Shown here: piece by piece, positions 7,083 to 50,894 of the stretch
Position numbering within the stretch: the first letter of the stretch is position 1
Layout of the letters: every line of letters starts with the position of its first letter
NCBI GenBank assembly: GCA_027923505.1
Contig: BROI01000013.1
Location: 868,001-922,795 of the forward strand
Origin: Mayamaea pseudoterrestris
Taxonomy: Eukaryota
DNA length: 54,795 bases
Direction: 5' to 3'
The notes under the pieces: generated by a model
The model's input: only the letters and a program-made list of their open reading frames with translations
Told to the model about the DNA's origin: nothing
Databases searched by the model: none
Translations under genes and position numbers: made by a program

Positions 7083-7852
7083 GCAATCAAGCGAATTAAC
7101 AAGCAAGCAGGCGCGTGGACGACCGACCGACTGCTCCAGCAAGCCATTTAATTAGCAAGCAGGCAAGCGAGCAAATTAACAAGCAAGCAGGCGATTTAAT
7201 AAGCAAGCAGGCGAGTGGACGACCGACTGATGGCTCCAGCACGCCATTTAATTAGCAAGCAGGCAAGCGAGCGACTTAAAAAGCAAGCGGGCGAGGCGGA
7301 CACCGACCCGACTGGCCGACCGACCGCTGCTCGAGCACGCCATTTTATTAGCAAGCAGGCAAGCGAGCAAATTAACAAGCAAGCAGGCGATTTAATAAGC
7401 AAGCAGGCGAGTGGACGACCGACTGATGGCTCCAGCACGCCATTTAATTAGCAAGCAGGCAAGCGAGCGACTTAAAAAGCAAGCGGGCGAGTGGACAACC
7501 GACCGTCTGGACGACCGACCGACTGCTCCAGCAAGCCATTTAATTAGCAAGCAGGCAAGCGAGCGATTTAACAAGCAAGCAAGCAATTTAATAAGCAAGC
7601 AGGCGAGTGGACGACCGACCGACTGCTCCATCAAGCCATTTAATTAGCAAGCAGGCAAGCGAGCGAGTTATTAAGCAAGTGGACGACCGACCGACTGCTC
7701 CAGCAAGCCATTTAATTAGCAAGCAGGCGAACGAGCGAGTGACTAAGCAAGCAGGCGAGTGGACGACCGACCGACTACTCCAGCAAGCCATTTAATTAGC
7801 AAGCGGGCGAGCGAGCGATTTAATAAGCAAGCAAGTCAATAAGCAAGCAAGC
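7083..7852 (+). repeat. AAGC-rich tandem repeat, ~70-98 bp monomers forming a 196-bp dimer, directly upstream of the LINE ORF
   Basis: CCATTTAATTAGCAAGCAGGCAAGCGAGC and GTGGACGACCGACCGACTGCTCCAGC recur about 8 times. Near-identical ORFs at 7215, 7411 and 7607 give the 196-bp period. Confidence 0.9.
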
Positions 7853-7908
7853 ACACATGCACGGAGGTTAAGATTTAACCACGTAAACAAATCAGCCAGC
7901 AATCTACC

Positions 7909-25900: not shown

Positions 25901-26410
25901 GTCAGCCTCCAGGCAGTCCTTTTTGCACCATTTGAGACTCTGCACCTGTCAATGGCATCCCCTGGACATGTTTTGCCTGACTCATTGGGTATTTGGGTGG
26001 CCAGGGCATGGGGCGTTTGACAGGGAAGAATCTGCAACTTGTGGTGTTGGCCATACCCACAGTGGAGGCCGTACCCATGGTGTCAGCCTCCAGGCAGTCC
26101 TTTTTGCACCATTTGAGACTCTGCACCTGTCAATGGCATACCCTGGACATGTTTTGCCTGACTCATTGGGTATTTGGGTGGCCAGGGCATGGGGCGTTTG
26201 ACAGGGAAGAATCTGCAACTTGTGGTGTTGGCCATACCCACAGTGGAGGCCGTACCCATGGTGTCAGCCTCCAGGCAGTCCTTTTTGCACCATTTGAGAC
26301 TCTGCACCCGTCATGCCCCTCTTTTTGCCTGACTCATTGGGTATTTGGGTGGCCAGGGCATGGGGCGTTTGACAGGGAAGAATCTGCAACTTGTGGTGTT
26401 GGCCATACCG
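13960..26410. repeat. Satellite A: 181-bp monomer, ~68 near-identical tandem copies
   Basis: Unit TGCAACTTGTGGTGTTGGCCATACCCACAG...GGGGCGTTTGACAGGGAAGAATC recurs every 181 bp; about 54% GC with only 2 CpG per unit. Confidence 0.98.
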
Positions 26411-26875
26411 ACAGTAGGGAGAAAAGACGTTTCAAGCCTAAAGCCGGGCTTGAATCCTTGTTAGTACCTCTTGAGACGAAAGTCTGCACCTGTCAGCGCA
26501 TCCCCTGGCATGTATATTGTCTACCGTTCGTGTATTTGGTGGCCATCCCGTAGGCGGATGGCTCGTCCGTTTCAAATTGGCAGTATAGTCTTCACTGCTG
26601 GTGGTGTTTGCACGGCTTCGCTCTGTAGAGTCCGAACATTCGCTGTGTCCGCCGGTTCCGGTTCTGATGTACCTGCGGTAGTCTTTCACGTTGTCAGTCG
26701 TGAATTCTTCGGTACGGTGAAGTGTGTAGGGTTTGGGCCAGTGGCTGACTTTCATCTCGCCTCGTCGTAGGAGTGTGGTCGTGAACGGGATGTTCCGTGT
26801 CTTGGTGCCGCTGGGACCGTGTCGATGTCCTTTTCAATGTTGCTTTGTTCGTCGGCCAAAACGGGGATCCCAGCA
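26397..26875 (-). repeat. 3' LTR of the copia element (left end garbled with satellite A)
   Basis: Matches 36888-37414 and shares the end ...AACGGGGATCCCAGCA (5'-TG on the minus strand). Many indels relative to the other LTR. Confidence 0.9.
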
Positions 26876-29800
26876 CCCTTCCCTTGGAGAGCGATGGCTT
26901 CAGGCATTGAATCCATCTTGTAGTACTCATCCTCTCCAACTAGGATCCGTGCATGGCGATTGAAGGTAGAAAGGTCCAAGTTCTTGGTGAAGATGTCGGC
27001 AGTGTTCTTCTTGGTTTCAATGTACTTGACAAGGAGGATGCCGTGTTCTTTGAGCTCTCGAGCGAAGTTGTGGCGTACGTCAACATGGCGTGTGCGCCCT
27101 CCTGTCTTCCAGCTGTTGATGATGTCGATTGCGCCGCTGTTGTCCATTTCCAAGACCATTGGCAGTTGGACTTTGAGGCCTATTGACTGAAGAATGGCAT
27201 GTGTGTGTAGCATGTCTTGTATGACGTCGGTACCTGCGGACATTTCAGACTCAGTTACTGAAAGGGAGACGTGTTTCTGTAGGCGGCAAACTCTCGCGGA
27301 CGGAACACCTTCAGGTAGGTGATGCCACCGGAATGACTCTTGTGCTTGTCGGGATCCTTGGCGTAATTTGAGTGCGCTTCTGGCGCTGAGATAAAGACGT
27401 GGTTTGGGCCGGTATACTCGCGGTTTGGGAGGAACAGTCTGCCTCTCTTTGGTGTTGCACACATGTAGCGGATGGCTCGGCACGTCATGGCTTTCCCTGG
27501 GCTTTCTTCCCGTTTTGCTGATCATTTATGGCGTAGAGGTGTCTCTGGTCGAGACCATCGGGCGAGGTAAAGTAGTTTGCCTAGGCCTTGTCGAAGAGTC
27601 TCTGTTTTGTTGCTAGCGGAGCCCTTTGACGCATGGTACCTACAGTGGTGCAGGACCATGCCTCTTGGCGTTCGCCGGGGATGACTCGTCTTGTAAGCTT
27701 TGTAGGAGGACTGGTTGCGTCCATCGCATGTAGTTTTCGCCTCGTTCATCTTGCAACCGATGTATTCGTCCATTGCGCCGTCCCCTCTTCGCCGTCAAAG
27801 TGCTGTAGAAGTCTGTTTCTTTGTCTTCAATCATGTCTCGGGGCCGCTTAACAGGAGATCGTCGATGTGCGAGACGATGTGCATGTGGCGGTCGCCATCT
27901 TGTTTGTAAAACAGGCAAGGGTCGGCAACGCTCCGTTCAAAACCTATTTGTCGAAGTGCTTTGACCAGTTGGTCCCAGAACGCTCGCGCAGCTTGTTTAG
28001 TTCCGTATAGCGTGCGCTTGAGTAGCCAAACGTGATTGGGTGGATAGTCGTCTTGGAAACCTTCAGGTATGTGCATGTAACACTCGTGGCCTTCGTCAAA
28101 CGTGTGTGAGGAATGCTCCGCTTATATCGAAGATGTGTGGCTCGTATCCCATCATGATGGCAAGAGTTGTGACAATCTTGATGGACGTTGGCGATGCTAC
28201 TGGAGATGAGATCTTGTTGCTGTCGTAGTGGATTCCGTCTTCTTGTTCGTAGCCTCTTGCTGTGATTCGTGCTTTGTATGTGCCGTTTGACTTCTTCTTG
28301 AGCACCCACTTGCTTGTCATGCACTTTGTTCGAGGTGGTATCATGCTGCGTGAAACGACTTGGAATGTGCCGTGCTTGATGAGGTTGTCCTTCTCCTTGT
28401 GAATTGCCTTGATCCATTCGGGACGCTCTGGACTGCCCATGGCTTGCTTGAATTTGATCGTATGCAACTCTTCTGTGTTGATGAATCCGCCTCCAATGCC
28501 TGCTCCAACGCACGCAAACTCTCCGAGTGTGGGAATGGGAGACGCGTCGTAGAAGATGCTTGCACTAGACGGCGTGCTGGGCATGTCGCGGAAGAAGTAT
28601 TCAAAGGTGGAGTTCGTGGGTTCGTTTGGTGGTTCGCTTGTCTCGTCGAGGTTTAAATGGATTTCTGCAGGGATCAAGTCGGCGCTATGGAAGCTTTGTT
28701 GATCTTCATGGTCGTTTTCTTGTTGGTATGGCGAATCATGAACGGATGTATGTGTGTCGTCGTGAATCGTTGAAGAGGGAACGTGTAGGAGGTCGGCCAT
28801 GATGGCAAGTTGTTCTGGCGGTAGATCGATTTGCTGGTTTGTCGACTCGTCGCTTTCGTCTTGTGTCTCGGTGACTAGTATAGATGTTTTATCTTCATGG
28901 TCATCTGGGTTGAAACCCTTCCCGAGTTGAAGAGTCGGGCTGCAAACATTGGAGACTCGAGTCGTGATCACTGTTTCGATAGACGCTTGAGGTGCGGCTG
29001 GTTGAGGTGCGGGACGTCCATTTGCTCGTGTGAGCTCTTCTTCATATTCATCGTCGTCTGCATTAATGTCCCACAGCCCGATTGCTTGACTGTCTCCTGC
29101 ACTGCTATGGTCGTCGGCTCTTGGGACTAAGTCGGGTATGGAATCATTTAATGATACGGAGTCGTCGTCGCGCTCGTGTGATGGCTCGTAGGCAGCTTCG
29201 TAACGTTGATCTTGTGTAGGCAAACAGAAACTATCTTCGTTGCACCTGTCAATGGCATACGCTGTCACATGCGCTGCTGTACTCGGTATTTCGGGGTACC
29301 AGGGCATGGGGCGTTCGACGAGACTGATTCTGCATCTTGTGGTCGCCATGCCCACAGTGGAGTACCCTGCTTTTCAGCCTCGCAGTACTTTTTGCACATT
29401 TGGACTCTGCTGATCTGTCACTGGCATACCGTTGGCAGTTTTTTGCCTGACTCATTGGGAATTTGGGTGGCCAGGCATGGCGGCGAATGTTGCAGGGACT
29501 GATCGGTCAACTCGTTGGTGTTCTTGGCCTTTCTCACGTGGTGCGAGGCCACCATATTGTCGTGAGCCTGGCAGATGATCTTGAGCTTTGCGATCCTCGT
29601 GAGTGATTTGAGACTATGCACGTGTCTTTGAATTGCGTTTGCTTGGCGATCGGCGATTGTAGTATGCGCTCTTGGAGATTGAGGCGTATTGAGTATGTCT
29701 GTTCCTTCTTCTTGCGCGCTTGTTGGTGCATTCGCATTTGGGTGGTATATTGTAAGTGCAGTTGGATTGAAGGTGTCGGGCGCTGATTGGATTGAGTTTG

Positions 29801-31470
29801 TTGGTGAGGCTTCCGATGCTTCTGGAGTGTCATGGTCAATCAGATCAATCAGCGAGGTAGATCGTGTCAGGATGCGCTTTGTATGGAACGTTGGTTTCTT
29901 CTTGTTCTTGTCGTCTGGAGATTTCGCGGGTGGCGGCGGCAAATTCTCATGGTGATGCGGTGAGAAAAGACTGCTGTAGTTGCTGCTGCAGGAAATGACG
30001 TCAACGAGTGGTGTAGTGACGATTTCGTGACGCGGGGGCTTAGGTTGAAAGTACGGTCGGTGAAGAAATGTGACGTCCTTGACGTCATGTACGCGATTGG
30101 TCTCGGGATTGAAGACGCGATAGCATCTGCTCGGGTGATTTTTGCTGTAGCCGACAAAGATGCCTTGGAATCCTTTAGGTGCAAGATGAGACTTTAATCC
30201 GGATATCACGACAGTGACTGCTTCGCCGTATGGATGTAGATTCTTGATGATGGGCGACTCGGTGCCGTAGAAGTGTTTGAATCGAGTTGCTAGAGTGCCC
30301 TTGTGCTCGACGATAGCAAGATTGTCCATGTCGGTTGAGTATTCGAAGGCAGACGGTGCCAAATGAAACCGAATTGAAGGTGGAATGTTTTGGGCTGTGA
30401 ATATGGCGCGCGTGCGGTTGGTAAGCGTCGGGAATCCAATCTCGACAAGACTGTTCTGCTGTGGAGTGTCTCTTGCCGTCCATTCAATCTCGATTGGCAA
30501 TTTCCAAGCGGAGCTCTTCATTGACTTGGCTAATGCTTGGTTCTCTCCGGCGTTGTCCATTCGAAGGTATTTGACTGTAATGCCGCGTTGGATGAGATAG
30601 TAGAGCATCTGGCATGTCGGCTCGACGATTTCCCCTTTGGTGCGGTACATGGCGCTATGCTTGTAGCCTGTCGCTTCATCGACAATGAGTTGCCATTGCG
30701 GTTGAATGGAGGAGAATCCAAGTTCTGATTTGCTCTTCATGACTCTGAATGACGAAAGATCCATGTAGAGTCGCTCGCCTGGCTCTGTGGCTCGGATGCG
30801 CGGCGATATTTGAGGGACCGGTTGCTTCTTGGCTTTTCCTATTGCGCAGGCGACGCACTTGTTCTTGGACGATCCGTGTATTTCCCATCTGAAGTGTTTG
30901 GCAATTGCGAGTGTCATTTGAGGGCTTTGATGTCCACACAGCTCGTGCATTTGTTTATAGGAGAGACGGCGTGTCGGAAGCAAGTTGGCTGCAATCATGG
31001 CGAACTCGTTGCGAGGCGCTTGAACTAATGGCATTGGAATGACTCGTCTCAAGTACATGCAGTAAAGATGACCTCGCTTGGTAGGAATCAGCAAGTCGAA
31101 GACGATGGAGTGTTGGTTTTCTTTTTCTAGCCAGATCTTCTTGTTGCCGCTGCGGAGGTTCCATCCTGTCGCTAAACGTTGAGTGATGCTGAATAGATTG
31201 AAGGCACAGTCTGCAACGCATACCCGAGAGTGGAGGGCGTCGACCGAAGCTAATTGCCATGGTTTAAGTCGGCGAGCGACTTTTGATTTCCCATTGTGAT
31301 GCCTTCATTTCGTATCTGTCGGGCATCGAACAGGCCTTCTGGAGATGTGTGCAGTCGACGGTTGCTGCGTGTCCGGATTTCGGAATGCTTCAGTAGCCAA
31401 GTTGGGGACACGTATGGATCGTGGATAGATTGCGGACGATTGTTGGTGTTGTTTCCCGCGTGGATGGCGC
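26752..31470 (-). CDS. pol: Copia pol (protease, integrase, RT, RNase H), broken by several frameshifts
   Basis: Protease region EGITMGN and NLFSITQRLATGW. Integrase HHCC (HELCGH..CVAC), YMDL, RMDNAGEN, PQQNSLVE, GIFVGY. RT KWVLKKK..YKARITARGYEQ, DISGAFL, LYGTKQAARAFW, DPCLF, HIDDLLL. RNase H EMDNSGA, RTRHVDVR, ADIFTKNL. Confidence 0.9.
26876..26885 (-). other. Polypurine tract
   Basis: Minus strand AAGGGAAGGG immediately before the TG of the 3' LTR. Confidence 0.85.
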
Positions 31471-34400
31471 TACCGGTGTACCTCAGGATGCATTGGCTCT
31501 GGTAATGATTGTTTGTTGTGTTGGGTTGCGGGGCTGGAATCTGCGCCGCTGCGCTTCGCTGCGTGTCTGCCTCCGCCTTTTGCACGAGGGTCTAGTAGTT
31601 CCTGTCGTTCTGCTTCTCTCTCGCTTTCTGGAAATTGGTCGAGGTAGTTGAAAGTCGTTAAGTCTTTGCTGAATTCCAAGCCGACGTTGCGGAGGTCTTC
31701 TTCTAGTGTGCTGCGCGTTCGCAATGTTCCTTCGAGTGCTCGTCTTTTGACTTCCTTGGCAATTGCATGATCGATGACGACTTTTAAACGTTCGTCAAAC
31801 AGTGCTTCCTCGTCTTCTTCATTGATTTCTTCGAACCAGAAGATGAGATCCTTGAGGAAACGCCTTTGGCTGAAACGTTCAAGCATGCACAGTCGTGCGG
31901 CGCTTGCAGGGTTTGTCTCGATGTCTTGCTCATCCTTCTTTATTTGTTGGATGGTGGTTTCGTAGCGCGCTCGAGAAACGACATGCTCAGGCGCTTGATT
32001 GCGGTGTTCCCAGGATTGAAGAAAAGCTTGATAGCCTTCATAGGTGAAGGAGTCTGATCCGTAGCTTTGACTGCTCGGGTACGCATCTGAATCGTAAGTT
32101 GCGTCGTCTGAGTTGGTTTCTTCGTCGCCAGGATTGCTCATGATGATTTCGACTCGCTCTGTATCCCAGACTCGGAGACCAGTGAATTGGTAGTAGCGGT
32201 CTCGCGTTGAGTCGATTGCTTCTTGATGCGTAAAGGCGTGTGGCATGGCTATGTGCTCGAGAAAGAACTCTTGTAGATCGGCAAACATCACTTTTATGGC
32301 GTCTGACAGCTCGTATAGTGGGGGATTGATGAACAGGACGCTTTGCAAGACGTGGAATGGCGGTAGATCATTCGAGTTGGCTTGTGGCGGAATGTTGTTT
32401 GGAATTCTTGGAGCAAAGGTTGGATACAAGTGCTCGACTTCTTTTAGCTCGTCTGCTGTAAGGAAGTCTTTGGGTAGCCAGTCTCCTCGCCATTGCGCAA
32501 AGCTTGTCGCTACAAGTTCTTCTACACTTTCTTCTTCTTTCAATTCAATTGGAGGACTTGTTGTTGGAGTTGAATCCTTGTCGGCGCTGCAAGTTGTGAC
32601 GTTGTCGGTGCGCTCATGTGTGTCGCATTCGTTGGCGTTTGTGGTTGTTGGCTCAAGATTAGTGGCTTCAGTTGTGTCGCTGCTCGTTGTGACGTTATTG
32701 GTGCTTTGCGTAGCGTCGTAGCCATGGTAGGAATCGTTGAGGTTGCTTGCTTGTTCTTCAATTGATGTGTGGACTTGTTGCTCCGATTTACTTGGCTCGT
32801 CTTGTTTGTGAAATGGCAGACCCTTCCCGTCTTCTTGCTTCGTTTGCTCAAGTGTTTCAATGTTTTGAATTAAAGTGCTGAAGTGTCTCCGTTCTTGCTC
32901 GGTTGGAGTCTTGCTGTTGACAAATTCGTCTTCAAAGTCACTTTCTTCTTCATCACTTGTGCTTGGGTCGCCGCATATGGATGCCCAACTGCGTCCATTG
33001 AGATTTGACGATGGAAGATTTGGCTTTGGCTTTGGTGACTCACTCGTTGCGGACGACTTTGTTAAAGACACTAATTCGACGGCTTGCTTCTTGTTGGTGG
33101 AGCTTGACGTTGGTCTTGCACGTTTCGTTCGAGTTGTTGGTGGTGCTGGAGGCTGCTCGATTGATGAATCGTCTTCTGATGAATAGTCTTTAATCTGATG
33201 TGGCTGTAGACCGCGCCAATTGGTTTGTGGATATAAAGGCGACTGTGTTGGAGCTGCAGGAGTGCGAGTAGGGAGTGCTGGATAAGTTTCATCAACTAAG
33301 TCGGCATGTATGAAGGCAAATTCGCTCCTTGAGTTTGTAGAAGGATACCGGCGGCTTGAAGAGGAACGTTGCGAAGAGGAACGATGCGATCGCTGAGTCA
33401 ACTGAAGGGCTTCGTGTACTGCTGCAAGTCCTTGTTCGAGTAGTAATGGCGCTTGACGAGGCACTTGTTCACGCATAATGGTTCGCGGGTGAGGTTCTTG
33501 ATGATGGTTTTGATGATCAAGTTGGCGCGGTTGCTCTTGTTGATCTCGGCGACGATAATCATTGTCTCTTGGTTGGTCTCTTGCGCGCTCGTTGTTGCGA
33601 TTCTGTCGATAACGACGGTCTTCTTGCTGATCATCTTGTGGAAGACGACGATCTTGCTGTCGATTTGAATTGCGAGGACGCTCTCTTGGTCGTTCTAAAC
33701 CACGCTCTTGTTGCTCTCGTGCTTCTTCATCTTCCAATTGACGACGAGCTTCGATTGACAGGCGAGTGTTCCATCCTCGAGGACGACGATGGGCGTTTTC
33801 GACTCGTTCAAAGCAGTCGGCGCTTCGATGATATGGTTGATGGCAAAGGTAGCATTTGAATGATGGTGGATTTCGCGTGTTGTTATAGTTGGTTTGCGGG
33901 CGTTCATTGCGAGTTGGTGGTGCTTGATGTTGACGAGTGTTTTGTTGGCGTGAAGTTTCTTGTTGCGGCGGTTCTGGTTGCGCTGCATATAGAACAATCT
34001 CGTTGACTCCTTGTATTAAAGCTTCTTCATCTTCTGCTGCGTAAATCGTTTGGTAGATAGTCGACACGACGCCTTCCATTTCGGTCTTGGTCAGGGCGCG
34101 TTGCTTGGTCTTTTGCTCTTGCGCTAGAGCGAGGCAGTATTGAGGCGGCAGCTTGTTCATGAGCGTAGCCATCAGGTCTTCTGCAAGAAGTGTTTGGTTG
34201 AACTTGATGGCTTGCGATTGCATGAGGTCGATGAGGTCTTGAGGATTTGCTGTTGGTCGTTCGAGCTTGAGATTTTGAATGCTTCGTTGGTAAAGTGTTG
34301 GCGCCATGAACTTGTCTGGAGAGAACTTGATTTCCAATGCGTTGATAACTTTCCAAGCTTCGCCTCCTGGGTACTCGGTTGATTCTGCTCCGACAAGATG

Positions 34401-34718
34401 GTCGTTCAACTCAGGGAATGGCGACAGTGCGATGGAGAGCATTTGCATGAGCGTTTCGTTTTGCTTGCGTTCCGCTTGTTTGTTTCGAATGATTTGGATT
34501 TCGTCTGCTGTTGAGTTAGCTGTAGGATCAGTAATGACTTCATTTTGAGTAGCTGGTAAATGCTCGGGTCGACTGCCTCTTATAGGACGGCGACAGCCTG
34601 CAATTCTTGCATGATTCTTGAACTGGTTGAACCATGATGGAAAGGCTTCGATGGTGTTGGTTATCTTTGGCGTTTTGTAGAGCGCATTCATAGTGATATC
34701 TTCTTGTTGGTCGGTCAT
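31470..34718 (-). CDS. gag: Copia Gag with a long C-terminal extension (1082 aa; probably continuous with pol in the true sequence)
   Basis: FPSWFNQFKNHA, AWKVINALEIKF, and the zinc knuckle CYLCHQPYHRSADC (CX2CX4HX4C). Start context CAATCATGA. Confidence 0.9.
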   Translation of the reverse strand: MTDQQEDITMNALYKTPKITNTIEAFPSWFNQFKNHARIAGCRRPIRGSRPEHLPATQNEVITDPTANSTADEIQIIRNKQAERKQNETLMQMLSIALSPFPELNDHLVGAESTEYPGGEAWKVINALEIKFSPDKFMAPTLYQRSIQNLKLERPTANPQDLIDLMQSQAIKFNQTLLAEDLMATLMNKLPPQYCLALAQEQKTKQRALTKTEMEGVVSTIYQTIYAAEDEEALIQGVNEIVLYAAQPEPPQQETSRQQNTRQHQAPPTRNERPQTNYNNTRNPPSFKCYLCHQPYHRSADCFERVENAHRRPRGWNTRLSIEARRQLEDEEAREQQERGLERPRERPRNSNRQQDRRLPQDDQQEDRRYRQNRNNERARDQPRDNDYRRRDQQEQPRQLDHQNHHQEPHPRTIMREQVPRQAPLLLEQGLAAVHEALQLTQRSHRSSSQRSSSSRRYPSTNSRSEFAFIHADLVDETYPALPTRTPAAPTQSPLYPQTNWRGLQPHQIKDYSSEDDSSIEQPPAPPTTRTKRARPTSSSTNKKQAVELVSLTKSSATSESPKPKPNLPSSNLNGRSWASICGDPSTSDEEESDFEDEFVNSKTPTEQERRHFSTLIQNIETLEQTKQEDGKGLPFHKQDEPSKSEQQVHTSIEEQASNLNDSYHGYDATQSTNNVTTSSDTTEATNLEPTTTNANECDTHERTDNVTTCSADKDSTPTTSPPIELKEEESVEELVATSFAQWRGDWLPKDFLTADELKEVEHLYPTFAPRIPNNIPPQANSNDLPPFHVLQSVLFINPPLYELSDAIKVMFADLQEFFLEHIAMPHAFTHQEAIDSTRDRYYQFTGLRVWDTERVEIIMSNPGDEETNSDDATYDSDAYPSSQSYGSDSFTYEGYQAFLQSWEHRNQAPEHVVSRARYETTIQQIKKDEQDIETNPASAARLCMLERFSQRRFLKDLIFWFEEINEEDEEALFDERLKVVIDHAIAKEVKRRALEGTLRTRSTLEEDLRNVGLEFSKDLTTFNYLDQFPESEREAERQELLDPRAKGGGRHAAKRSGADSSPATQHNKQSLPEPMHPEVHR

Positions 34719-34726
34719 GATTGCGA

Positions 34727-36733
34727 TTAGAATGAGTAGTAAAAGTTTTGGCTATTGGTCGGACGTTGATAGCTAATGTTGGTGTCGGCGGATGGAAATT
34801 GACGGTTTGGGGTAGCTAAACGTTGCTGACGTGGCCAATTGAGTTGCTGATGTGACGGAGTTTGAAAACGTGAACGAGCGTGGAACTGCTGAGCGTGTTG
34901 ATCGCGACGATGGACACGTTGTTGATTTGTCACTTGTCGATTTCGTTGAGCTTGTAAGTGCAGCTGTCGTTGTTGTTGATTAAGAAGATGATTTAAACGA
35001 GTTACTTGAGCTTGAAGACTGTTTATATCGCGTGTATGATGAGTTGTAGTGTTGCGCGTGTCGTTGATGCGAGGTTGGACTCGAAGGATTGGATTGGAGG
35101 TTCGGTTTTGCTGTCGGGTTGGCGTGACAATTCGATTCGCTTGTTGCTGTCTTAAACGCTGCTGGTAAGGACGATTGCTGTTCGTTTCGTTGCGACGTTG
35201 ATTGCGTCTTTGACTAACAGTGATTCGATTGCGTTGAAGATTGATCGAAGCTTGTTGCGTTGTTGATGCGCGCTCTTGACTTGCTTGTCGCTGTCTGTTT
35301 CGTTGTTGAAGAAGTGCTTGACGACGGTCTGCAACGCTTTGAACTGCTGCGATGCGAGATGCTTCTTGGTAAGTGCTTGAAACGTTCTGAGAGCGAAGAG
35401 TTTGTTGCGATGGTCTCGTGTCTTGGCGATGCGCTTGTCTAACTGGCGCTTGATTTGCTTCTTGTTGGCGAATTGAATTGATTGATCGGCAAGTATGCGT
35501 CGTGCTTGTTGGCGATGTCTCTAATTGCTCGTTGACTGGCGATGAGTTGCTGCTTGGCGAGGGTACGTGTGTTTGCGTATTGGCGATGCACACAGAACAA
35601 GCGCACGTCGTCTCTGTGTTTATATCTGGTACTTCAGAAAGTCTTTGCAAGTCTTGACGTCTGTTTTCTTCGTCCTTTTGAAGCAGGAAACGAGTCTTCT
35701 TGAGGAAGTAAAGAGTTACTGGATGCGATAGGTCTTTTGCTTCGAATTCGTCTCGCTCGTTGCGCAAAGTGTCTTCTAGTAGAAGAATCTCCTTCTCTTC
35801 GGGCGTGAAAGGATTGTTCGGTCGGCAAAGATCAAGGCTCTTGTAAAAGTCTGCTCGCTTTTCGTCAAGGAAGATTAATGACTTTGGAGAAAAGATGAAG
35901 GCTTTGAGAAAGGGTACGTTGCTGTCGATGTAACTTGTTTCGACGCCTGATTGTGCGGTTGACTCGGCAACTTTTGCTAATCCTTCTTCTTTGAATTCTT
36001 CCGCAATGTGACTGTAAAACACTTCGTTGTTGGCAAGGTCTTTAAACTGATTGAAGCGCTGCTCACAAGCTTGTTCCGGGTCGATTGGCTTTGATGAAGG
36101 CGGCGGTAGAATGCCTCGAAAGATCCAGGCGAAACGCTTGTCTTCTTCGTCCCAAGTCCAAGGGGTTGGAGGAGAGACGCGCGGGTCGTAACGATACCAG
36201 CCGTATCGAACGTTCGGGTGGTTGTAGACTGCTTTCTCTTCGTCAGTGGCGGGTCGTCCAGTTAGATGCCAGTCTTCGGGGTTGTTTGGTGAAAGACGAC
36301 GAAGGCTGTCGCGCGGGTTGGACTCGGTTGAAATGCGCTCTCGTTCTTGATTGCTTGCAATTTGATCGGCGGCGGTAAGTCGGATTACTGGGCGGCCTTC
36401 TGGAGCGACCGATTGGAGACTTGAAGGGTTGAACTCGTGTAAAGTAATGTTGATGAAGAGGACGACGACTTGTAGAAGGCGTCGTGAAGAATTAAAGACT
36501 TGGCGGCTTGTGCTGAAGCGGCGAAGGAAACTGTAAAGAAGGCGCGTGACTTGTGGAGTGAGAGGCGACTTGGAAAGAAGAGTGCTCGGCAGACTAGGTA
36601 AAGTAGTTCTGCTCAACTGATGGAGACTTGAAATCTGCTCGACGACGTTGGCCTTGATCAAACGCTTGATCCGACTCGAGGTAAACTGAAAGATAAAGGC
36701 AAAAGGGTCGCTTGTAGGCTTGCTCTTGCTCAC
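34727..36733 (-). CDS. ORF0: AUG-less 668-codon ORF of unknown function upstream of gag; start codon non-AUG and not determined
   Basis: A 2-kb stop-free frame on the element's sense strand with no ATG. The track start is GTG. It ends TAA 8 nt before the gag ATG. Confidence 0.75.
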   Translation of the reverse strand: MSKSKPTSDPFAFIFQFTSSRIKRLIKANVVEQISSLHQLSRTTLPSLPSTLLSKSPLTPQVTRLLYSFLRRFSTSRQVFNSSRRLLQVVVLFINITLHEFNPSSLQSVAPEGRPVIRLTAADQIASNQERERISTESNPRDSLRRLSPNNPEDWHLTGRPATDEEKAVYNHPNVRYGWYRYDPRVSPPTPWTWDEEDKRFAWIFRGILPPPSSKPIDPEQACEQRFNQFKDLANNEVFYSHIAEEFKEEGLAKVAESTAQSGVETSYIDSNVPFLKAFIFSPKSLIFLDEKRADFYKSLDLCRPNNPFTPEEKEILLLEDTLRNERDEFEAKDLSHPVTLYFLKKTRFLLQKDEENRRQDLQRLSEVPDINTETTCACSVCIANTQTHVPSPSSNSSPVNEQLETSPTSTTHTCRSINSIRQQEANQAPVRQAHRQDTRPSQQTLRSQNVSSTYQEASRIAAVQSVADRRQALLQQRNRQRQASQERASTTQQASINLQRNRITVSQRRNQRRNETNSNRPYQQRLRQQQANRIVTPTRQQNRTSNPILRVQPRINDTRNTTTHHTRDINSLQAQVTRLNHLLNQQQRQLHLQAQRNRQVTNQQRVHRRDQHAQQFHARSRFQTPSHQQLNWPRQQRLATPNRQFPSADTNISYQRPTNSQNFYYSF

Positions 36734-36887
36734 TCAATACTCCGCTTGTTGCTGCAGAGCGTTGGAAATTCGAGGTTGACAGAAAGGGCTTGAAGAAATC
36801 CGCGTCCGGTTTTGTTCAATGCTTTGGAAACTTGGTAAAAAGATCTTGGTTCAATCGGCAAGTAATTACTTTGCTTGAGATCCAAGA

Positions 36888-37414
36888 TGAAGGTCCGTAC
36901 GGAAGTAGGGAGAAAAGACGGTTTAAACGCTAAAAGACTGGGGAAACTTTGAATCTATTGTTAGTAGATCCTCTAGAATGAGACGAAAGTGAAGCGGTCG
37001 ATTTCGCATCCAAGAGTGGCTTCTCATTCATACGTATGTATATTGTCTACCGGTCGTGTCATTTTGTACTGGCCATCCCGTAGGCGGGATGGCTCTCGTC
37101 CGTCTACAGAACTGGCAGTATAGTCTTCACTGCTGGTAGTGTTTGCACGGCTTCGCTCTGTAGAGGCCCAACATTCGCTGTGTACGCCGGTTCCGGTATT
37201 CGATGTACCTGTGGTAGTCTTTCTACGGTTGTCAGTCGTGAATTCTTCGGGTACGGTGAAGTGTGTAGGGTTTGGGCCAGTGGCTGACTTTCTACTCTCG
37301 CCGTCGTAGGAGTGTGGTCGTGAACGGGATGTTCCGTGTCTTGGTGCCGCTGAGACCGTGTCGATGTCCTTTTCAATGTTGCTTTGTTCGTCGGCCAAAA
37401 CGGGGATCCCAGCA
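36888..37414 (-). repeat. 5' LTR of the copia element (~527 bp, TG...CA on the minus strand)
   Basis: Minus strand TGCTGGGATCC...GGACCTTCA. The inner end is inferred from the CA and a partial match to 26397-26419. Confidence 0.85.
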
Positions 37415-40400
37415 AAGCCCTGTAGGTGCCCAAAATACACCAGAATGGTGCCAACATCATTATTCAGGCTGCGCTACAAGATGGTAGGCTTGGCTGGTGT
37501 CTCAGGGGATGGCAATGTATTTGGTGACAACTTGTCACCAGTCTCAGCCCGCAGATGCCTGGACATTCAAACACCCCTACAGCAAGCCCTGTAGGTGCCC
37601 GAAATACACCAGAATGGTGCCAACATCATTATTCAGGCTGCGCTACAAGATGGTAGGCTTGGCTGGTGTCTCAAGGGATGGCAATGTATTTGGTGACAAC
37701 TTGTCACCAGTCTCAGCCCGCAGATGCCGTGACATTCAAACGCCCCTACAGCAAGCCCTGTAGGTGCCCAAAATACACCAGAATGGTGCCAACATCATTA
37801 TTCAGGCTGCGCTACAAGATGGTAGGCTTGGCTGGTGTCTCTGGGGATGGCAATGTATTTGGTGACAACTTGTCACCAGTCTCAGCCCGCAGATGCCGGG
37901 ACATTCAAATGCCCCTACAGCAAGCCCTGTAGGTGCCCAAATTACACCAGAATGGTGCCAACATCATTATTCAGGCTGAACTACAAGATGGTAGGCTTGG
38001 CTGGTGTCACAGGGGATGGCAATGTATTTGGTGACAACTTGTCACCAGTCTCAGCCCGCAGATGCCGGGACATTCAAACGCCCCTACAGCAAGCCCTGTA
38101 GGTGCCTGAAATACACCAGAATGGTGCCAACATCATTATTCAAGCTGCGCTACAAGATGGTAGGCTTGGCTGGTGTCTCAGGGGATGGCAATGTATTTGG
38201 TGACAACTTGTCACCAGTCTCAGCCCGCAGATGCCGTGACATTCAAACGCCCCTACAGCAAGCCCTGTAGGTGCTCAAAATACACCAGAATGCTGCCAAC
38301 ATCATTATTTAAGCTGAGCTACAAGATGGTAGGCTTGCTGGTGTCTCAGGGGATGGCAATGTATTTGGTGACAACTTGTCACCAGTCTCAGCCCGCAGAT
38401 GCCATGACATTCAAACGCCCCTACAGCAAGCCCTGTAGGTGCCCAAAATACACCAGAATGGTGCCAACATCATTATTCAGGCTGCGCTACAAGATGGTAG
38501 GCTTGGTTGGTGTCTCAGGGGATGGCAATGTATTTGGTGACAACTTGTCACCAGTCTCAGCCTGCAGATGCCAGGACATTCAAACGCCCCTACAGCAAGC
38601 CCTGTAGGTGCCCAAAATACACCAGAACGGTGCCAACATCATTATTCAGGCTGCGCTACAAGATGGTAGGCTTGGCTGGTGTCTCAGGGGATGGCAATGT
38701 ATTTGGTGACAACTTGTCACCAGTCTCAGCCCGCAGAAGCCGGGACATTCAAACGCCCCTACAGCAAGCCCTGTAGGTGCCCAAAATACACCAGAATGGT
38801 GCCAACATCATTATTCAGGCTGAGCTACAAGATGGTAGGCTTGGCTGGTGTCTCAGGGGATAGCAATGTATTTGGTGACAACTTGTCACCAGTCTCAGCC
38901 CGCAGATGCCGGGACATTCAAACGCCCCTACAGCAAGCCCTGTAGGTGCCCAAAATACACCAGAATGGTGCCAACATCATTATTCAGGCTGCGCTACAAG
39001 ATGGTAGGCTTGGCTGGTGTCTCAGGGGATGGCAATGTATTTGGTGACAACTTGTCACCAGTCTCAGCCCGCAGATGCCTGGACATTCAAACACCCCTAC
39101 AGCAAGCCCTGTAGGTGCCCGAAATACACCAGAATGGTGCCAACATCATTATTCAGGCTGCGCTACAAGATGGTAGGCTTGGCTGGTGTCTCAAGGGATG
39201 GCAATGTATTTGGTGACAACTTGTCACCAGTCTCAGCCCGCAGATGCCGTGACATTCAAACGCCCCTACAGCAAGCCCTGTAGGTGCCCAAAATACACCA
39301 GAATGGTGCCAACATCATTATTCAGGCTGCGCTACAAGATGGTAGGCTTGGCTGGTGTCTCAGGGGATGGCAATGTATTTGGTGACAACTTGTCACCAGT
39401 CTCAGCCCGCAGATGCCGTGACATTCAAATGCCCCTACAGCAAGCCCTGTAGGTGCCCAAAATACACCAGAATGGTGCCAACATCATTATTCAGGCTGAA
39501 CTACAAGATGGTAGGCTTGGCTGGTGTCTCAGGGGATGGCAATGTATTTGGTGACAACTTGTCACCAGTCTCAGCCCGCAGATGCCGGGACATTCAAACG
39601 CCCCTACAGCAAGCCCTGTAGGTGCCCAAATTCACCAGAATGGTGCCAACATCATTATTCAGGCTGAACTACAACATGGTAGGCTTGGCTGGTGTCTCAG
39701 GGGATGGCAATGTATCTGGTGACAACTTGTCACCAGTCTCAGCCCACAGATGCCGTGACATTCAAACGCCCCTACAGCAAGCCCTGTAGGTGCCCAAAAT
39801 ACACCAGAATGGTGCCAACATCATTATTCAGGCTGCGCTACAAGATGGTAGGCTTGGCTGGTGTCTCAGGGGATGGCAATGTATTTGGTGACAACTTGTC
39901 ACCAGTCTCAGCCCGCAGATGCCGGGACATTCAAACGCCCCTACAGCAAGCCCTGTAGGTGCCCAAAATACACCAGAATGGTGCCAACATCATTATTCAG
40001 GCTGCGCTACAAGATGGTAGGCTTGGCTGGTGTCTCAGGGGATGGCAATGTATTTGGTGACAACTTGTCACCAGTCTCAGCCCGCAGAAGCCGGGACATT
40101 CAAACGCCCCTACAGCAAGCCCTGTAGGTGCCCAAAATACACCAGAATGGTGCCAACATCATTATTCAGACTGCGCTACAAGATGGTAGGCTTGGCTGGT
40201 GTCTCAGGGGATGGCAATGTATTTGGTGACAACTTGTCACCAGTCTCAGCCCGCAGATGCCGGGACATTCAAACGCCCCTACAGCAAGCCCTGTAGGTGC
40301 CCACAATACACCAGAATGGTGCCAACATCATAATTCAGGCTGCGCTACTAGATGGTAGGCTTGGCTGGTGTCTCTGGGGATGGCAATGTATTTGGTGACT

Positions 40401-43400
40401 ATTTGTCACCAGTCTCAGCCCACAGATGCCGTGACATTCAAACGCCCCTACAGCAAGCCCTGTAGGTGCCCAAAATACACCAGAATGGTGCCAACATCAT
40501 TATGCAGGCTGCGCTACAAGATGGTAGGCTTGGCTGGTGTCTCAGGGGATGGCAATGTATTTGGTGACAACTTGTCACCAGTCTCAGCCCGCAGATGCCG
40601 TGACATTCAAACGCCCCTACAGCAAGCCCTGTAGGTGCCCAAAATTCACCAGAATGGTGCCAACATCATTGTTCAGGCTGCGCTACAACATGGTAGGCTT
40701 GGCTGGTGTCTCAGGGGATGGCAATGTATTTGGTGACAACTTGTCACCAGTCTCAGCCCGCAGATGCTGAGACATTCAAACGCCCCTACAGCAAGCCCTG
40801 TAGGTGCCCAAAATACACCAGAATGGTGCCAACATCATTATTCAGGCTGAACTACAAGATGGTAGGCTTGGCTGGTGTCTCAGGGGATGGCAATGTATTT
40901 GGTGACAACTTGTCGCCAGTCTCAGCCCGCAGATGCCGTGACATTCAAACGCCCCTACAGCAAGCCCTGTAGGTGCCCAAAATACACCAGAATGGTGCCA
41001 ACATCATTATTCAGGCTGCGCTACAAGATGGTAGGCTTGGCTGGTGTCTCTGGGGATGGCAATGTATTTGGTGACAACTTGTCACCAGTCTCAGCCCGCA
41101 GATGCCGTGACATTCAAACGCCCCTACAGCAAGCCCTGTAGGTGCCCAAAATACACCAGAATGGTGCCAACATCATTATTCAGGCTGCGCTACAAGATGG
41201 TAGGCTTGGCTGGTGTCTCAGGGGATGGCAATGTATTTGGTGACAACTTGTCACCAGTCTCAGCCCGCAGATGCCGGGACATTCAAACGCCCCTACAGCA
41301 AGCCCTGTAGGTGCCCAAAATACACCAGAATGGTGCCCAAATCATTATCAAGCTGCGCTACAAGATGGTAGGCTTGGCTGGTGTCTGAGGGGATGGCCAT
41401 GTATTTGGTGACAACTTGTCACCGGTCTCAGCCCGCAGATGCCGGGACATTCAAACGCCCCTACAGCAAGCCCTGTAGGTGCCCAAAATACACCAGAATG
41501 GTGCCAACATCATTATACAGGCTGCGCTACAAGATGGTAGGCTTGGCTGGTGTCTCAGGGGATGGCAATGTATTTGGTGACAACTTGTCACCAGTCTCAG
41601 CCCGCAGATGCTGGGACATTCAAACGCCACTACAGCAAGCCCTGTAGGTGCCCAAAATACACCAGAATGGTGCCAACATCATTATTCAGGCTGCGCTACA
41701 AGATGGTAGGCTTGGCTGGTGTCTCAGGGGATGGCAATGAATTTGGTGACAACTTGTCACCAGTCTCAGCCCGCAGATGCCGGGACATTCAAACGCCCCT
41801 ACAGCAAGCCCTGTAGGTGCCTGAAATACACCAGAATGGTGCCAACATCATTATTCAAGCTGCGCTACAAGATGGTAGGCTTGGCTGGTGTCTCAGGGGA
41901 TGGCAATGTATTTGGTGACAACTTGTCACCAGTCTCAGCCCGCAGATGCCGGGACATTCAAACGCCCCTACAGCAAGCCCTGTAGGTGCCCAAAATACAC
42001 CAGAATGGTGCCAACATCATTATTCAGGCTGCGCTACAAGATGGTAGGCTTGGCTGGTGTCTCAGGGGATAACAATGTATTTGGTGACAACTTGTCACCA
42101 GTCTCAGCCCGCAGATGCTGTGACATTCAAACGCCCCTACAGCAAGCCCTGTAGGTGCCCAAAATACACCAGAATGGTGCCAACATCATTATTCAGGCTG
42201 CGCTACAAGATGGTAGGCTTGGCTGGTGTCTCAGGGGATGGCAATGTATTTGGTGACAACTTGTCACCAGTCTCAGCCCCCAGATGCCGGGACATTCAAA
42301 CGCCCCTACAGCAAGCCCTGTAGGTGCCCAAAATACACCAGAATGGTGCCAACATCAATATTTAAGCTGCGCTACATATGGTAGGCTTGGCTGGTGTCTC
42401 AGGGGATGGCAATGTATTTGGTGACAACTTGTCACCAGTCTCAGCCCGCAGATGCCGTGACATTCAAACGCCCCTACAGCAAGCCCTGTAGGTGCCCAAA
42501 ATACACCAGAATGGTGCCAACATCATTATTCAGGCTGAGCTACAAGATGGTAGGCTTGGCTGGTGTTTCTAGGGATGGCAATGTATTTGGTGACAACTTG
42601 TCACCAGTCTCAGCCCGCAGATGTTGTGACATTCAAACACCCCTACAGCAAGCCCTGTAGGTGCCCAAAATACACCAGAATGGTGCCAACATCATTATTC
42701 AGGCTGAACTACAAGATGGTAGGCTTGGCTGGTGTCTCTGGAGATGGCAATGTATTTGGTGGCAACTTGTCACCAGTCTCAGCCCGCAGATGCCGGGACA
42801 TTCAAACGCCCCTACAGCAAGCCCTGTAGGTGCCCAAAAACACCAGAATAGTGCCAACATCATTATTTAAGCTGAGCTTCAAGATGGTAGGCTTGGCTGG
42901 TGTCTCAGGGGATGGCAATGTATTTGGTGACAACTTGTCACCAGTCTCAGCCCGCAGATGCCGTGACATTCAAACGCCCCTACAGCAAGCCCTGTAGGTG
43001 CCCAAAATACACCAGAATGGTGCCAACATCATAATTCAGGCTGAGCTACAAGATGGTAGGCTTGGCCGGTGTCTCTGGGGATGGCAATGTATTTGGTGAC
43101 AACTTGTCACCAGTCTCAGCCCGCAGATGCTGGGACATTCAAATGCCCCTACAGCAAGCCCTGTAGGTGCCCAAAATTCACCAGAATGGTGCCAACATCA
43201 TTATTCAGGCTGCGCTACAAGATGGTAGGCTTGGCTGGTGTCTCAGGGGATGGCAATGTATTTGGTGACAACTTGTCACCAGTCTTAGCCCGCAGATGGC
43301 GTGACATTCAAACGCCCCTACAGCAAGCCCTGTAGGTGACCAAAGTACACCAGAATAATGCCAACATCATTATTCAAGCTACGCTACAAGATGGTAGGCT

Positions 43401-43626
43401 TGGCTGGTGTCTCAGGGGATGGCAATGTATTTGGTGACAACTTGTCACCAGTCTCAGCCCGCAGATGATGTGACATTCAAACGCCCCTACAGCAAGCCCT
43501 GTAGGTGCCCATATAACTCCAGAATGGTGCCAACATTCAATATTCAAGCTACGCTACAAGATGGTAGGCTTGGCTGGTGTCTCAGGGGATGGCAATGTAT
43601 TTGGTGACAACTTGTCACCAGTCTCA
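37415..43626. repeat. Satellite B: 169-bp monomer, ~37 copies
   Basis: Unit AAGCCCTGTAGGTGCCCAAAATACACC...TGGTGACAACTTGTCACCA...CAAACGCCCCTACAGC recurs every 169 bp. Confidence 0.98.
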
Positions 43627-44700
43627 GGATTGATGGAGCAAGACTACAATTGGGGGTAGATTTGGAAGGCCATGCCTTGTAGCACCATGGAGCTCGTTCC
43701 TGTGTGGATGTCTGGATTGCCCTCCCATACCATAGCTGCTAGGAATCAGCTATGGATAATTGTTTTGCACCAATATCACCGCAAGCATGACCCCAAGCAT
43801 AGTCATACGGGATTGATGAAGCAAGACTACAATTGGGGGTAGATTTAAAAAGCCCATGCACTGTAGCACCATGGAGCTGGTACCTGTGTAGGTATCTGGA
43901 TTGCCCTCCCATACCATTGCTGCTAGGAATCCGCTATGGAAGGTTTTTTGCACCAATCTCACCGCAAGCATGTCCCCAAGCATAGCCAAACAGAATTGAT
44001 GGAGAAAGACTACAATTGGGGGTAGATTTGGAAGGCCATGCCTTGTAGCACCATGGAGCTCGTTCCTGTGTGGATGTCTGGATTGCCCTCCCATACCATT
44101 GCTGCTAGGAATCCGCTATGGAAGAATTTTTATGCACCAAACTCACAGCAAGCATGTCCCCAAGCATAGCCAAACAGGATTGATGGAGCAAGACTGCAAT
44201 TGGGGGTAGATTTGGAAGGCCATGCATTGTAGCACCATGGAGCTGGTACCTGTGTGGATGGCTGGATTGCCCTCCCAAACCATTGTTGCTAGGAATCCGC
44301 TATGGAAAATTTTTATGCACCAATCTCACCGCAAGCATGTCCCCAAGCATAGCCAATTGGTATTGATGGAGGGAGACTACAATGGGGGGGAGGTCTGGAA
44401 GGCCATGCACTGTAGCACCATGGAGCTGGTACCTGTGTGGATGGCTGGATTGCCCTCCAATACCATAGCTGCTTTGAATCAGCTATGGATGATTTTTTTG
44501 CACCAATCTCACCGCAAGCATGTCCCCAAGCACAGCCAAATGGGATTGATGGAGCGAGACCACAATTGGGGTTCGATTTGAAAGGCCATGCACTGTAGCA
44601 CCATGGAGCTGGTTCCTGTGTGGATGTCTGAACTGCCCTCCCATACCATACGAGTAGCTTCGAGGAAACAGCTAAGGAAGTTTAATTTTGCACCAATCTC
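43627..44700. repeat. Satellite C: ~183-bp monomer, ~6 diverged copies
   Basis: GGATTGATGG-like unit starts at 43627, 43810, 43993, 44177, 44360 and 44543. Confidence 0.92.
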
Positions 44701-44708
44701 CAGGCATT

Positions 44709-45092
44709 CTATCTGGTAGCGCAGAGTGAACAATGGTGCTGTCACTATTGCTGGGTGATTCAGGTGTAGAAATGGCCTGGTATATTCAGGCATCTACATG
44801 GCTTGATGATGGGGCACTTGAATGTCAAGACATCTGCAGACTGAGACTGGCGTTAATTCTCAACCGTCACTATGCAGTCTACTGAAATACCTTGTTGGCA
44901 CCATCCTTGGGTGATTTGGGCATCTATGTGGCTTGATGTATGAGCGTTTGAATGTCAAGGCATATCTGGGCTGGGACTGAGGACAAATTCTCAGCTGTCA
45001 CATTGCAATCTACTGAGACACCAGCCAGGCAATTTGCATCTTGTACCGCACCTTAGATACGGATGTTGACACCATTCTGGCTTGCTTTGGAC
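44709..45092 (-). repeat. Decayed inverted copies of satellite B (~2-2.5 units)
   Basis: gcgtttgaatgtc, ctgagactgg, ctgagacaccagcca, catcttgta.cgca and gatgttg.caccattctgg match the reverse complement of the 169-bp unit. Confidence 0.8.
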
Positions 45093-50635: not shown

Positions 50636-50894
50636 GGTGACGGATTTTAAAGAAGGAAGGAACGAAACCTTGAATGGCGTTCATCCTCTCCAAGCGGTCG
50701 ATGGTCAGACGCTTCTAGAATGTGAGTACCGTTCAGACTCGACACATGGTACGTCATCGACCTGATGACGTCGCGGCGAGCTGACTGCGCGCGGCGCGGC
50801 GGAGGCGTACGCACGACGCCGATTGTTTCGTTTCGACTGCAACCCCTCACATCTTTCGTCTCCTTCGCACTTGTAAACCATTCAATTGACCAAC

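Follow-up and report, generated by a model that had tools for sequence, protein, structure and literature searches.

The 54,795-nt window analyzed here (positions 868,001 to 922,795 of contig BROI01000013.1 from Mayamaea pseudoterrestris) carries on its minus strand a Ty1/copia-like long terminal repeat (LTR) retrotransposon with an unusual region upstream of gag. Over 2288 nt, the sense strand is devoid of ATG in all three frames, and within this tract one reading frame, here designated ORF0, is open for 668 codons without a single methionine codon. The ATG-free tract is confirmed as real and is far beyond chance. We propose that the tract represents an AUG-free leader, selected for ribosomal scanning to gag, and that ORF0 is coding and is initiated at low level from a near-cognate codon. 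We assign a probability of about 0.45 to this reading. The coordinates of all features of the element are collected in Table 1.

Because the element is on the minus strand, its sense-strand ATGs appear on the plus strand as CAT, and the tract was delimited by a scan for CAT. This triplet is found at 34716 and next at 37007, which is a gap of 2291 nt in a window that contains 1224 CATs in total (22.3 per kb). No other CAT gap is longer than 294 nt, so that the tract is about eight times longer than the next ATG-free gap of the same strand; the largest ATG gap of the plus strand is 431 nt. From the base composition of the tract (sense strand A 30%, C 30%, G 17.5%, T 22%), 26.8 ATGs are expected, and about 35 would be expected if the tract had the observed/expected ratio of the gag-pol region of the same element, which is 1.32 (124 ATGs in ~7.8 kb, 15.8 per kb). 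None is observed. The initial annotation, which had been made by eye, reported the absence of sense ATGs between 34718 and 37007, estimated the expectation at about 30 and described ATGs as frequent in gag and in the outer LTR. All of this is borne out by the computational recount, with six ATGs being found within the 408 nt of the 5' LTR upstream of the tract. The most conservative model, a dinucleotide Markov model, predicts 9.1 ATGs. This model is over-conservative because the counts of AT (100 observed, 153 expected) and TG (46 observed, 88.7 expected) are themselves lowered by the missing ATGs. Even so, none of the sequences from the Markov simulations lacked ATG (0/2000 and 0/3000). ATG is the only trinucleotide that is absent from the tract; the next rarest is GGG (1 observed versus 1.7 expected).

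The tract begins close to where transcription could begin. Its start is ~30 nt downstream of a TATA-like sequence, which is conserved in both LTRs and to which we attribute a putative promoter role, and it is ~100-105 nt before the inner (3') end of the 5' LTR, with this end being uncertain by tens of nt, as indels are needed to align the last ~100 nt of the 5' LTR with the 3' LTR. In the 3' LTR, the last ATG is at 26501, and the final ~87 nt are likewise ATG-free. An R-U5 region of ~100 nt is ordinary for copia-type elements. In the simplest reading, transcription would start at ~37010-36980, and the tract would be the entire leader, from the transcription start site (TSS) to the gag AUG. The suggestion in the initial annotation that the zone starts near a possible TSS is thus upheld, and the initiator (Inr)-like TCATTC which it had listed at 36981-36976 is present in the sequence. 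Provided that the TSS is at or after ~37009, the gag AUG would be the first AUG on the RNA. The preceding ATG at 37009 is in the frame of ORF0, but four stops intervene, and alone it opens an upstream ORF (uORF) of 28 codons. If transcription started a few nt upstream of 37009, this AUG would be too close to the cap for good use, since an AUG too near the cap is poorly used (the Kozak rule as treated in PMC5902531); otherwise, it would open the 28-codon uORF. At its other end, the tract is terminated by the first gag-frame ATG (34718). The context of this ATG (caatcATGa, with A at -3) is good, as had been claimed.

ORF0 agrees with the earlier description of a stop-free frame of 2 kb, the closing TAA of which is separated from the gag AUG by 8 nt. 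In the two remaining frames of the tract, there are 20 and 15 stops. In 3000 simulations, the longest open frame had 516 codons, with a median of 168 for the longest frame per simulation. When scored against a codon table from gag and pol, frame 0 has a log-likelihood of +0.23 per codon, and the other two frames have -0.03 and -0.09. Frame 0 scores highest in all five segments into which ORF0 was divided, narrowly so in codons 400-540. Thus, ORF0 looks coding, as it exceeds all simulations in length and as gag-pol-like codon usage is restricted to frame 0. Methionine codons are absent (0/668), compared with 15/1082 in gag and 13/628 in the first part of pol. An ATG can also arise at a codon junction, when a codon for Asn, Asp, His or Tyr precedes a codon that starts with G. 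In ORF0, codons in this position never end with T (0 T, 20 C), compared with 36 T and 48 C in the rest of ORF0. Such an avoidance is not seen for the same junction codons in gag (22 T, 35 C) and in the first part of pol (8 T, 17 C). Dipeptides that are able to form a junction ATG occur 20 times in ORF0 while ~22 are expected. This near-expected count indicates that ATGs are avoided by synonymous choice and not by loss of the dipeptides. The deduced protein has three parts: codons 1-110 are basic (isoelectric point (pI) 11.9), codons 110-400 form an acidic part with a mixed composition (pI 5.1) and codons 400-668 are basic and rich in Q, N and R (pI 12.0).

The following mechanism is proposed. 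On the genomic RNA of the element, the tract would make up the complete 5' leader. Selection would clear all AUGs from it, which would allow cap-dependently scanning 40S subunits to cross ~2.3 kb to the gag AUG. A minority of the scanning ribosomes would start at a near-cognate codon, resulting in a low level of ORF0 protein, and the majority would leak past ORF0 to gag. ORF0 could be translated only from a near-cognate codon because there is no AUG upstream of it or within it on the predicted RNA. Its product would be an orphan accessory protein, free of methionine and with a basic Q/N/R-rich tail; from this composition, one may guess at an RNA-binding or accessory role. The scanning model would jointly account for why ATG is missing from three frames, why the tract is sharply bounded, why the gag ATG has an A at -3 and why the leader is predicted to fold weakly. 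The mean minimum free energy (MFE) per 120-nt window is -16.9 kcal/mol in the leader, -18.3 kcal/mol in gag and -21.6 kcal/mol in pol. Within the leader, folding is weakest in the last 500 nt before gag (-6.6 to -15 kcal/mol).

Some further features of the leader are reported here as separate observations. CpG is enriched in 34719-37006 (observed/expected 1.39 versus 1.09 in gag-pol). One window of the leader, 36095-36214, folds strongly (-36.5 kcal/mol versus the leader mean given above), and in this region a 6-bp hairpin (CGATAC...GTATCG) inside ORF0 appears upon inspection by eye. A scan of 34500-37500 against Rfam returned only the flavivirus cHP at 34689-34718, which is attributed to chance (22.1 bits, below the gathering threshold of 40; E=0.25).

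Several observations weigh against ORF0 being translated and maintained as a gene, and the first concerns the start codon. Near-cognate codons were scanned over 37006-35900, which covers approximately the first 280 codons of ORF0. No in-frame near-cognate codon in this region has both a purine at -3 and a G at +4. Five near-cognate codons have an optimal context; they precede ORF0 or are out of frame, and the frames that they open have 2-51 codons. None of the hairpins downstream of GTG 36733, CTG 36592, ACG 36547 and AUU 36448 is significant (z -1.09 to +0.92). The start site is thus a guess, because all candidates lack both an optimal context and a significant downstream hairpin. Our best guess is CUG 36592, which has an A at -3 and would result in 621 codons, followed by ACG 36547 and AUU 36448. 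The initial annotation had named GTG 36733 and the ATT at 36448 in a caacATT context as candidates. Both are present, but the GTG is in a poor context (T at -3) and neither is followed by a notable hairpin. Compared with gag-pol, CTG and GTG are somewhat depleted in the leader (observed/expected 0.49 versus 0.80 and 0.51 versus 0.68, respectively), and ACG is enriched (1.42 versus 1.12). The depletion of CTG and GTG may be a sign of selection against strong near-cognate starts as well.

Second, ORF0 has no relatives in the searched data. A search of 5.8 billion proteins, with 7990 scored candidates of 367-1169 aa, returned no match at E<=0.001, and an exhaustive phmmer search of 1.84 billion representatives returned none either. 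In metagenome contigs, 89 pattern matches were obtained, none of which was confirmed by tblastn. The ESM Atlas did not provide a usable match, and no Pfam family was assigned. An AlphaFold2 model of residues 105-400, computed without an alignment, is uninformative (mean predicted local distance difference test (pLDDT) 35.7), and much of the protein is of low complexity. Part of the codon signal could stem from a Q/R-rich composition that ORF0 has in common with the disordered part of gag. Also, this copy of the element is decayed and non-functional, with a frameshifted reverse transcriptase (RT), LTRs that are 92% alike and two in-frame stops that separate pol from gag. In summary of the earlier interpretation as a bicistronic leader, the tract, the copia class, the start in the predicted TSS region and the coding appearance of ORF0 stand, while its translation and its start codon are putative.

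Two candidate relationships were rejected. ORF0 was considered as a paralog of gag, but the best BLASTP match had E=1.6. An exact 24-nt word of the leader was found in metagenome contigs at one locus, with 25 nt being shared; with a best tblastn E of 0.31, this is considered a chance match.

Other copies of the element were analyzed in public contigs. Parts of the stretch are found in eight public runs from two studies, and the contigs of four of these runs (here X1, X2, X4 and X7), which carry four different organism labels, were aligned to 31400-37400 at a likeness of at least 80%. It should be noted that the best-matching runs may include the window's own source. X1 contributed 155 contigs, which are distributed over the likeness bands >=99%, 95-99%, 90-95% and <90% as 61/59/29/6; for the 164 contigs of X2, the distribution is 88/48/19/9. 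As the contigs of both runs are spread over these bands, several diverged versions of the element must exist. One contig of 1123 nt spans 35104-36226 with 2-3 differences. Contigs from X4 and X7 cover parts of ORF0, and one from X7 crosses the junction between ORF0 and gag (34681-34855). Among the 40 listed differences of a total of 335, 14 are in the leader and none of these creates an ATG; 12 of the 14 are in ORF0 and none of these creates a stop. A 3-nt in-frame deletion at 36575 is found in four contigs from three runs, and 6 of the 12 listed ORF0 variants are clustered in the last 22 codons. Three results of this comparison are to be added to the counterevidence: the check for ATGs and stops covers the 14 leader differences among the 40 listed ones, the other 295 being unlisted; the 12 listed ORF0 variants (4 synonymous, 8 non-synonymous) are near the neutral expectation; and a 1-nt deletion at 36278, found in a ~90%-alike version with one contig each in X1 and X2, would shift the frame of ORF0. 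The contig comparison may be taken as weak support for conservation, not as a test.

The main rival explanation shares the first half of our proposal. The leader would be kept AUG-free for scanning, with ORF0 being untranslated, now or from the beginning, either as what is left of an ancestral or captured coding sequence, or as a residual open frame in a long leader that acts at the RNA level, for instance in packaging or dimerisation. We rate this as unlikely, with a number of results in its favor. It would fit the absence of ORF0 homologs and of a good start context, the 4:8 ratio of the listed variants, the frameshifted version at 36278 and the low-confidence structure model. Stops are rare in an A/C-rich and TA-poor composition, so that the simulated median of the longest ORF is already as high as 168 codons; however, the 668 codons of ORF0 exceed even the simulated maximum. 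Clearing ~30 ATGs takes time, and during this time an unconstrained frame should gain stops, as the two other frames did. A relic that is not translated would also not be expected to show gag-pol-like codon usage in frame 0 only, nor an avoidance of junction ATGs by a synonymous C with the dipeptide count being as expected.

A second alternative is that the AUG for ORF0 is supplied by another form of the RNA, either by a transcript that starts further upstream and whose AUG 37009 is spliced onto ORF0, or by a subgenomic mRNA that arises by splicing. For translation of gag, an AUG-free tract would remain necessary on the unspliced RNA. ATG 37009 is indeed in the frame of ORF0, and spliced accessory mRNAs are known from other LTR elements, with CERV of Cer1 (described in PMC10309623) and the splicing of BARE1 (described in PMC3735527) as examples. 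However, ATG 37009 is separated from ORF0 by four in-frame stops, and the only joint in the compared contigs (33152 to 33245) is located in gag and not in the leader. Even with an AUG for ORF0 on a separate mRNA, the genomic RNA would have to stay free of methionine codons in the frame of ORF0, so that splicing explains the data no better. We consider this explanation to be quite improbable.

Much less probable still is that ORF0 and gag form one translational unit, either by a -1 shift from ORF0 into gag or by termination at the UAA followed by reinitiation at the gag AUG 8 nt further on. The geometry would permit it: relative to ORF0, gag is read in the -1 frame, the frames overlap by 25 nt, and stop and start are close. 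Consecutive ORFs on one RNA with neighboring stop and start are also found in SART1 and in caliciviruses, and termination-reinitiation at a UAAUG is known for non-LTR retrotransposons (in both cases as outlined in PMC5902531). In contrast to these, the element has no UAAUG overlap, and the first 60 nt from the gag AUG are unstructured (-1.2 kcal/mol, z +0.8). There is no slippery heptamer of the type X XXY YYZ in 34790-34720. Coupling does not require, and does not predict, that AUGs are removed from three frames, and the start of ORF0 would still have to be explained.

That the tract results from chance, from mutation bias (a G-poor strand with under-represented TG, or G-to-A hypermutation) or from an assembly artefact is dismissed as next to impossible, because the same strand bias in gag-pol coexists with an excess of ATGs, none of the 3000 composition-matched simulations was devoid of ATG, ATA shows no enrichment (10 observed, 46 expected) and six Trp codons remain in ORF0, both of which argue against G-to-A hypermutation, and the same sequence is present in contigs of independent runs.

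Among known systems, two had been invoked in the initial annotation. The glyco-Gag of murine leukemia virus (MLV) is a CUG-initiated, in-frame N-terminal extension of Gag. The element would resemble it in that initiation at a near-cognate codon, located before the gag AUG of the genomic RNA, is proposed to yield an extra protein. The analogy nevertheless fails, because ORF0 is not an in-frame extension of Gag: it is in another frame and is closed by a TAA before the gag ATG. The analogy to rice tungro bacilliform virus (RTBV) is apt. As described in PMC5902531, ~10% of ribosomes start at the AUU of RTBV ORF I, while the others continue scanning for 900 nt across ORFs I and II, where internal AUGs are absent; a change of this AUU to AUG drastically reduces the translation of ORF III, and badnaviruses also keep their ORFs I and II free of AUGs. 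The likeness consists of a long AUG-free ORF upstream of the main gag/pol-type ORF on the RNA of a reverse-transcribing element, which in RTBV is the capped genomic RNA. The differences are substantial. The element has LTRs, an integrase and RVT_2, whereas RTBV and badnaviruses are plant pararetroviruses (Caulimoviridae), which are related to Ty3/gypsy. The AUG-free distance is 2288 nt in the element and ~900 nt in RTBV (PMC5902531), which is a factor of ~2.5. RTBV and badnaviruses reach ORF I by shunting over a structured, uORF-rich leader, whereas the leader of the element would be AUG-free from the predicted TSS onward. Finally, the element has one upstream ORF, which lacks any AUG and any sequence similarity to the searched data. 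The element may thus work like RTBV, for which this strategy is demonstrated, and like badnaviruses, for which it is inferred, without belonging to the Caulimoviridae.

Additional ORFs upstream of gag are also found in plant LTR elements, with ORF1 of Ogre as an example. ORF0 resembles such additional ORFs (aORFs) in being an extra ORF in sense orientation within the internal region, with no function being assigned. In plant LTR retrotransposons, aORFs occur upstream or downstream of gag-pol; they are described mostly for Ty3/gypsy lineages, between pol and the 3' LTR (PMC7264820). AUG-free ORFs or leaky scanning are not mentioned in the available text of that review. Diatom CoDi elements have the order protease, integrase, RT and RNase H, CCHC knuckles in some families and TG/CA LTR ends, and their authors searched for an 'ORF1' ahead of the polyprotein ORF (as described in PMC2806351). 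The host group of the element is probably the same, for which the neighboring phosphoglycerate kinase gene gives a lead and not a proof. With ~11 kb, the element is outside the CoDi length range of 5182-8062 bp (same source) and so differs from CoDi elements in length. In the open-access full texts that were searched, no AUG-free leader was found to be described for an LTR retrotransposon. The paper on BARE (PMC3735527), in its available text, names an untranslated leader and does not refer to its AUG content.

It is tempting to speculate that a copia-type lineage, probably of diatoms, independently evolved the strategy of RTBV and badnaviruses, with a bicistronic RNA, an accessory protein of ~600 residues which is free of methionine and made by near-cognate initiation only, and most ribosomes scanning ~2.3 kb to gag. 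This wider proposal is offered tentatively, and we consider it to be possible though doubtful. If it is true, we know of no longer natural tract that is kept AUG-free for scanning, and of no earlier case in an LTR retrotransposon. Scanning by 40S subunits would then be dependable over more than 2 kb in vivo. Selection would be able to strip every AUG, Met codons included, from a gene of 668 codons for the sake of sharing one mRNA. A translation strategy of plant pararetroviruses would extend to Ty1/copia elements of a distant eukaryotic group. ORF0 would also represent a class of accessory genes that is invisible to ATG-based annotation and is missed by standard gene callers, and the leader would provide a natural substrate for the study of scanning processivity and near-cognate initiation in a protist.

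Table 1. Features of the Ty1/copia-like element (window coordinates; all on the minus strand)
Feature	Position	Strand	Remarks
5' LTR	36904..37414	-	starts TGCTGGGATCC at 37414; inner end approximate
TATA-like AATATACATA	37035..37044	-	conserved in both LTRs; promoter role putative
Last ATG before the tract	37007..37009	-	ggATGcg; kept in the 3' LTR; in the frame of ORF0
Inr-like TCATTC	36976..36981	-	sequence read; candidate only
ATG-free sense tract, all frames	34719..37006	-	2288 nt; from CAT scan; putative 5' leader from TSS region to gag start
ORF0	34727..36733	-	668 codons stop to stop, 0 Met; open 36733-34730, TAA 34729-34727
gag-frame ATG	34716..34718	-	first ATG after the tract; 8 nt past the ORF0 stop; -1 frame relative to ORF0
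gag-frame ORF	31470..34718	-	1082 codons from ATG; CX2CX4HX4C zinc knuckle CYLCHQPYHRSADC in the translation
pol part 1, protease-integrase region	29418..31304	-	628 codons; same frame as gag; SH3_retrovirus E=3.2e-11
Reverse transcriptase, split over two frames	27831..29373	-	RVT_2, Pfam PF07727
Polypurine tract AAGGGAAGGG	26876..26885	-	directly upstream of the 3' LTR
3' LTR	26414..26875	-	~92% identical to the 5' LTR; starts TGCTGGGATCC; abuts 181-bp satellite

The element had been assigned to copia in the initial annotation, and this assignment is supported by RVT_2 and an integrase SH3-like domain on the minus strand, with the integrase upstream of the RT. It is a Ty1/copia-like LTR retrotransposon as judged from its sequence, because the integrase precedes the RT on the sense strand and the RT belongs to RVT_2. 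The LTRs were detected by a self-BLAST comparison, in which 26510-26875 pairs with 37036-37414 (92.4% identity over 381 columns). In a MAFFT alignment, the shared blocks reach, with indels, ...CGTCTTTTCTCCCTACT at 36904 and at ~26414 in the 3' LTR. The length between the LTR ends is ~11 kb, of which 2.3 kb are the leader. As a candidate primer-binding site next to the 5' LTR, a TGG-initiated stretch, TGGATCTCAAGCA, is located at ~36884-36872, which is ~20 nt inside the apparent LTR end; no tRNA gene for comparison was found in the window. A matching 5-bp target-site duplication was not found at the flanks of the element, which are two different satellites.

Pfam scans did not return a gag model for the gag-frame ORF, and a homology search with 8000 scored candidates of 601-1913 aa gave no match at E<=0.001. 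Gag and the first part of pol are separated by two in-frame stops (TAG 31472-31470 and TGA 31307-31305). In an alignment with 12 copia polyproteins, the first part of pol has the integrase HHCC and D,D,E columns in common with all of them. It has 82 relatives, with at most 41% identity; most of these carry RVT_2, and many carry zf-CCHC or Retrotran_gag_2. The nearest relatives are mostly polyproteins of ~1100-1900 aa on contigs of ~4-10 kb. These sizes suggest, without proving it, that the long leader is specific to the lineage of this element. Upon comparison of the pol alignment with viral contigs, none of 24 pattern matches was confirmed. Positions 4-89 of RVT_2 are encoded in the ORF 28096-29373 (E=2e-14) and positions 94-176 in the ORF 27831-28121 (E=6.8e-15). 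Because RVT_2 is split over two frames, pol is considered decayed.

The public contigs also provide some observations on the structure of this copy. In X1 and in X2, two contigs each match down to 31589 and then run on unlike the window, and no contig of either run covers 31400-31588. The 3' end of gag and pol of the window may thus differ from the commoner version of the element family. One X1 contig over the 5' LTR (36872-37400) differs by one letter, compared with the 92% likeness between the two LTRs; the copy may be a recombinant. A piece of the leader of 154 nt (36470-36623) is alone common to contigs of X1, X2 and X4, with both flanks being unrelated and containing ATGs; its end at 36623 is seen in X1 and X2 only. 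Other contigs match the LTR down to 36872 and then diverge. The leader thus seems to be a mosaic, and the LTR, with a possible primer-binding site that ends with ...TGGATCTCAAGCA, seems to occur also with another internal sequence.

The element is flanked by satellite DNA. On one side, a 181-bp satellite occupies 13960-26415 in three blocks (40.6, 8.1 and 20.0 copies); on the other side, a 169-bp satellite occupies 37410-43627 (36.8 copies, 96% matches). It is followed by a 183-bp array at 43627-44649 (5.6 copies) and by an inverted partial copy of the 169-bp unit at 44893-45080 (~77% alike). This satellite-flanked region looks centromere-like or heterochromatic. A pol stretch of ~282 bp (29241-29522), located at the frame break between integrase and RT, is 77-79% identical to ~1.5 units of the 181-bp satellite. 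Either this satellite may have been derived from the element family or satellite DNA may have been inserted into this copy.

Upstream of the 181-bp satellite, there is an open frame of 1942 codons (7879-13707, plus strand) to which no Pfam family could be matched at E<=0.001. Tandem repeats of 72-196 bp, rich in AGCAAGCAGGCG, lie ahead of this frame at 7082-7833, and the plus-strand ATG gaps of 431 and 309 nt are caused by these repeats themselves. On the other side of the element, four genes with long uninterrupted ORFs were found. They code for a bZIP protein (47395-48933, plus strand), an RBBP4/CAF1C-like WD40 protein (49121-50680, minus strand), phosphoglycerate kinase (PGK; 51060-52085, plus strand, E=3.7e-122) and a VASt-domain protein (52688-53554, minus strand). 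The nearest ESM Atlas cluster of the neighboring PGK is mostly from Bacillariophyta.

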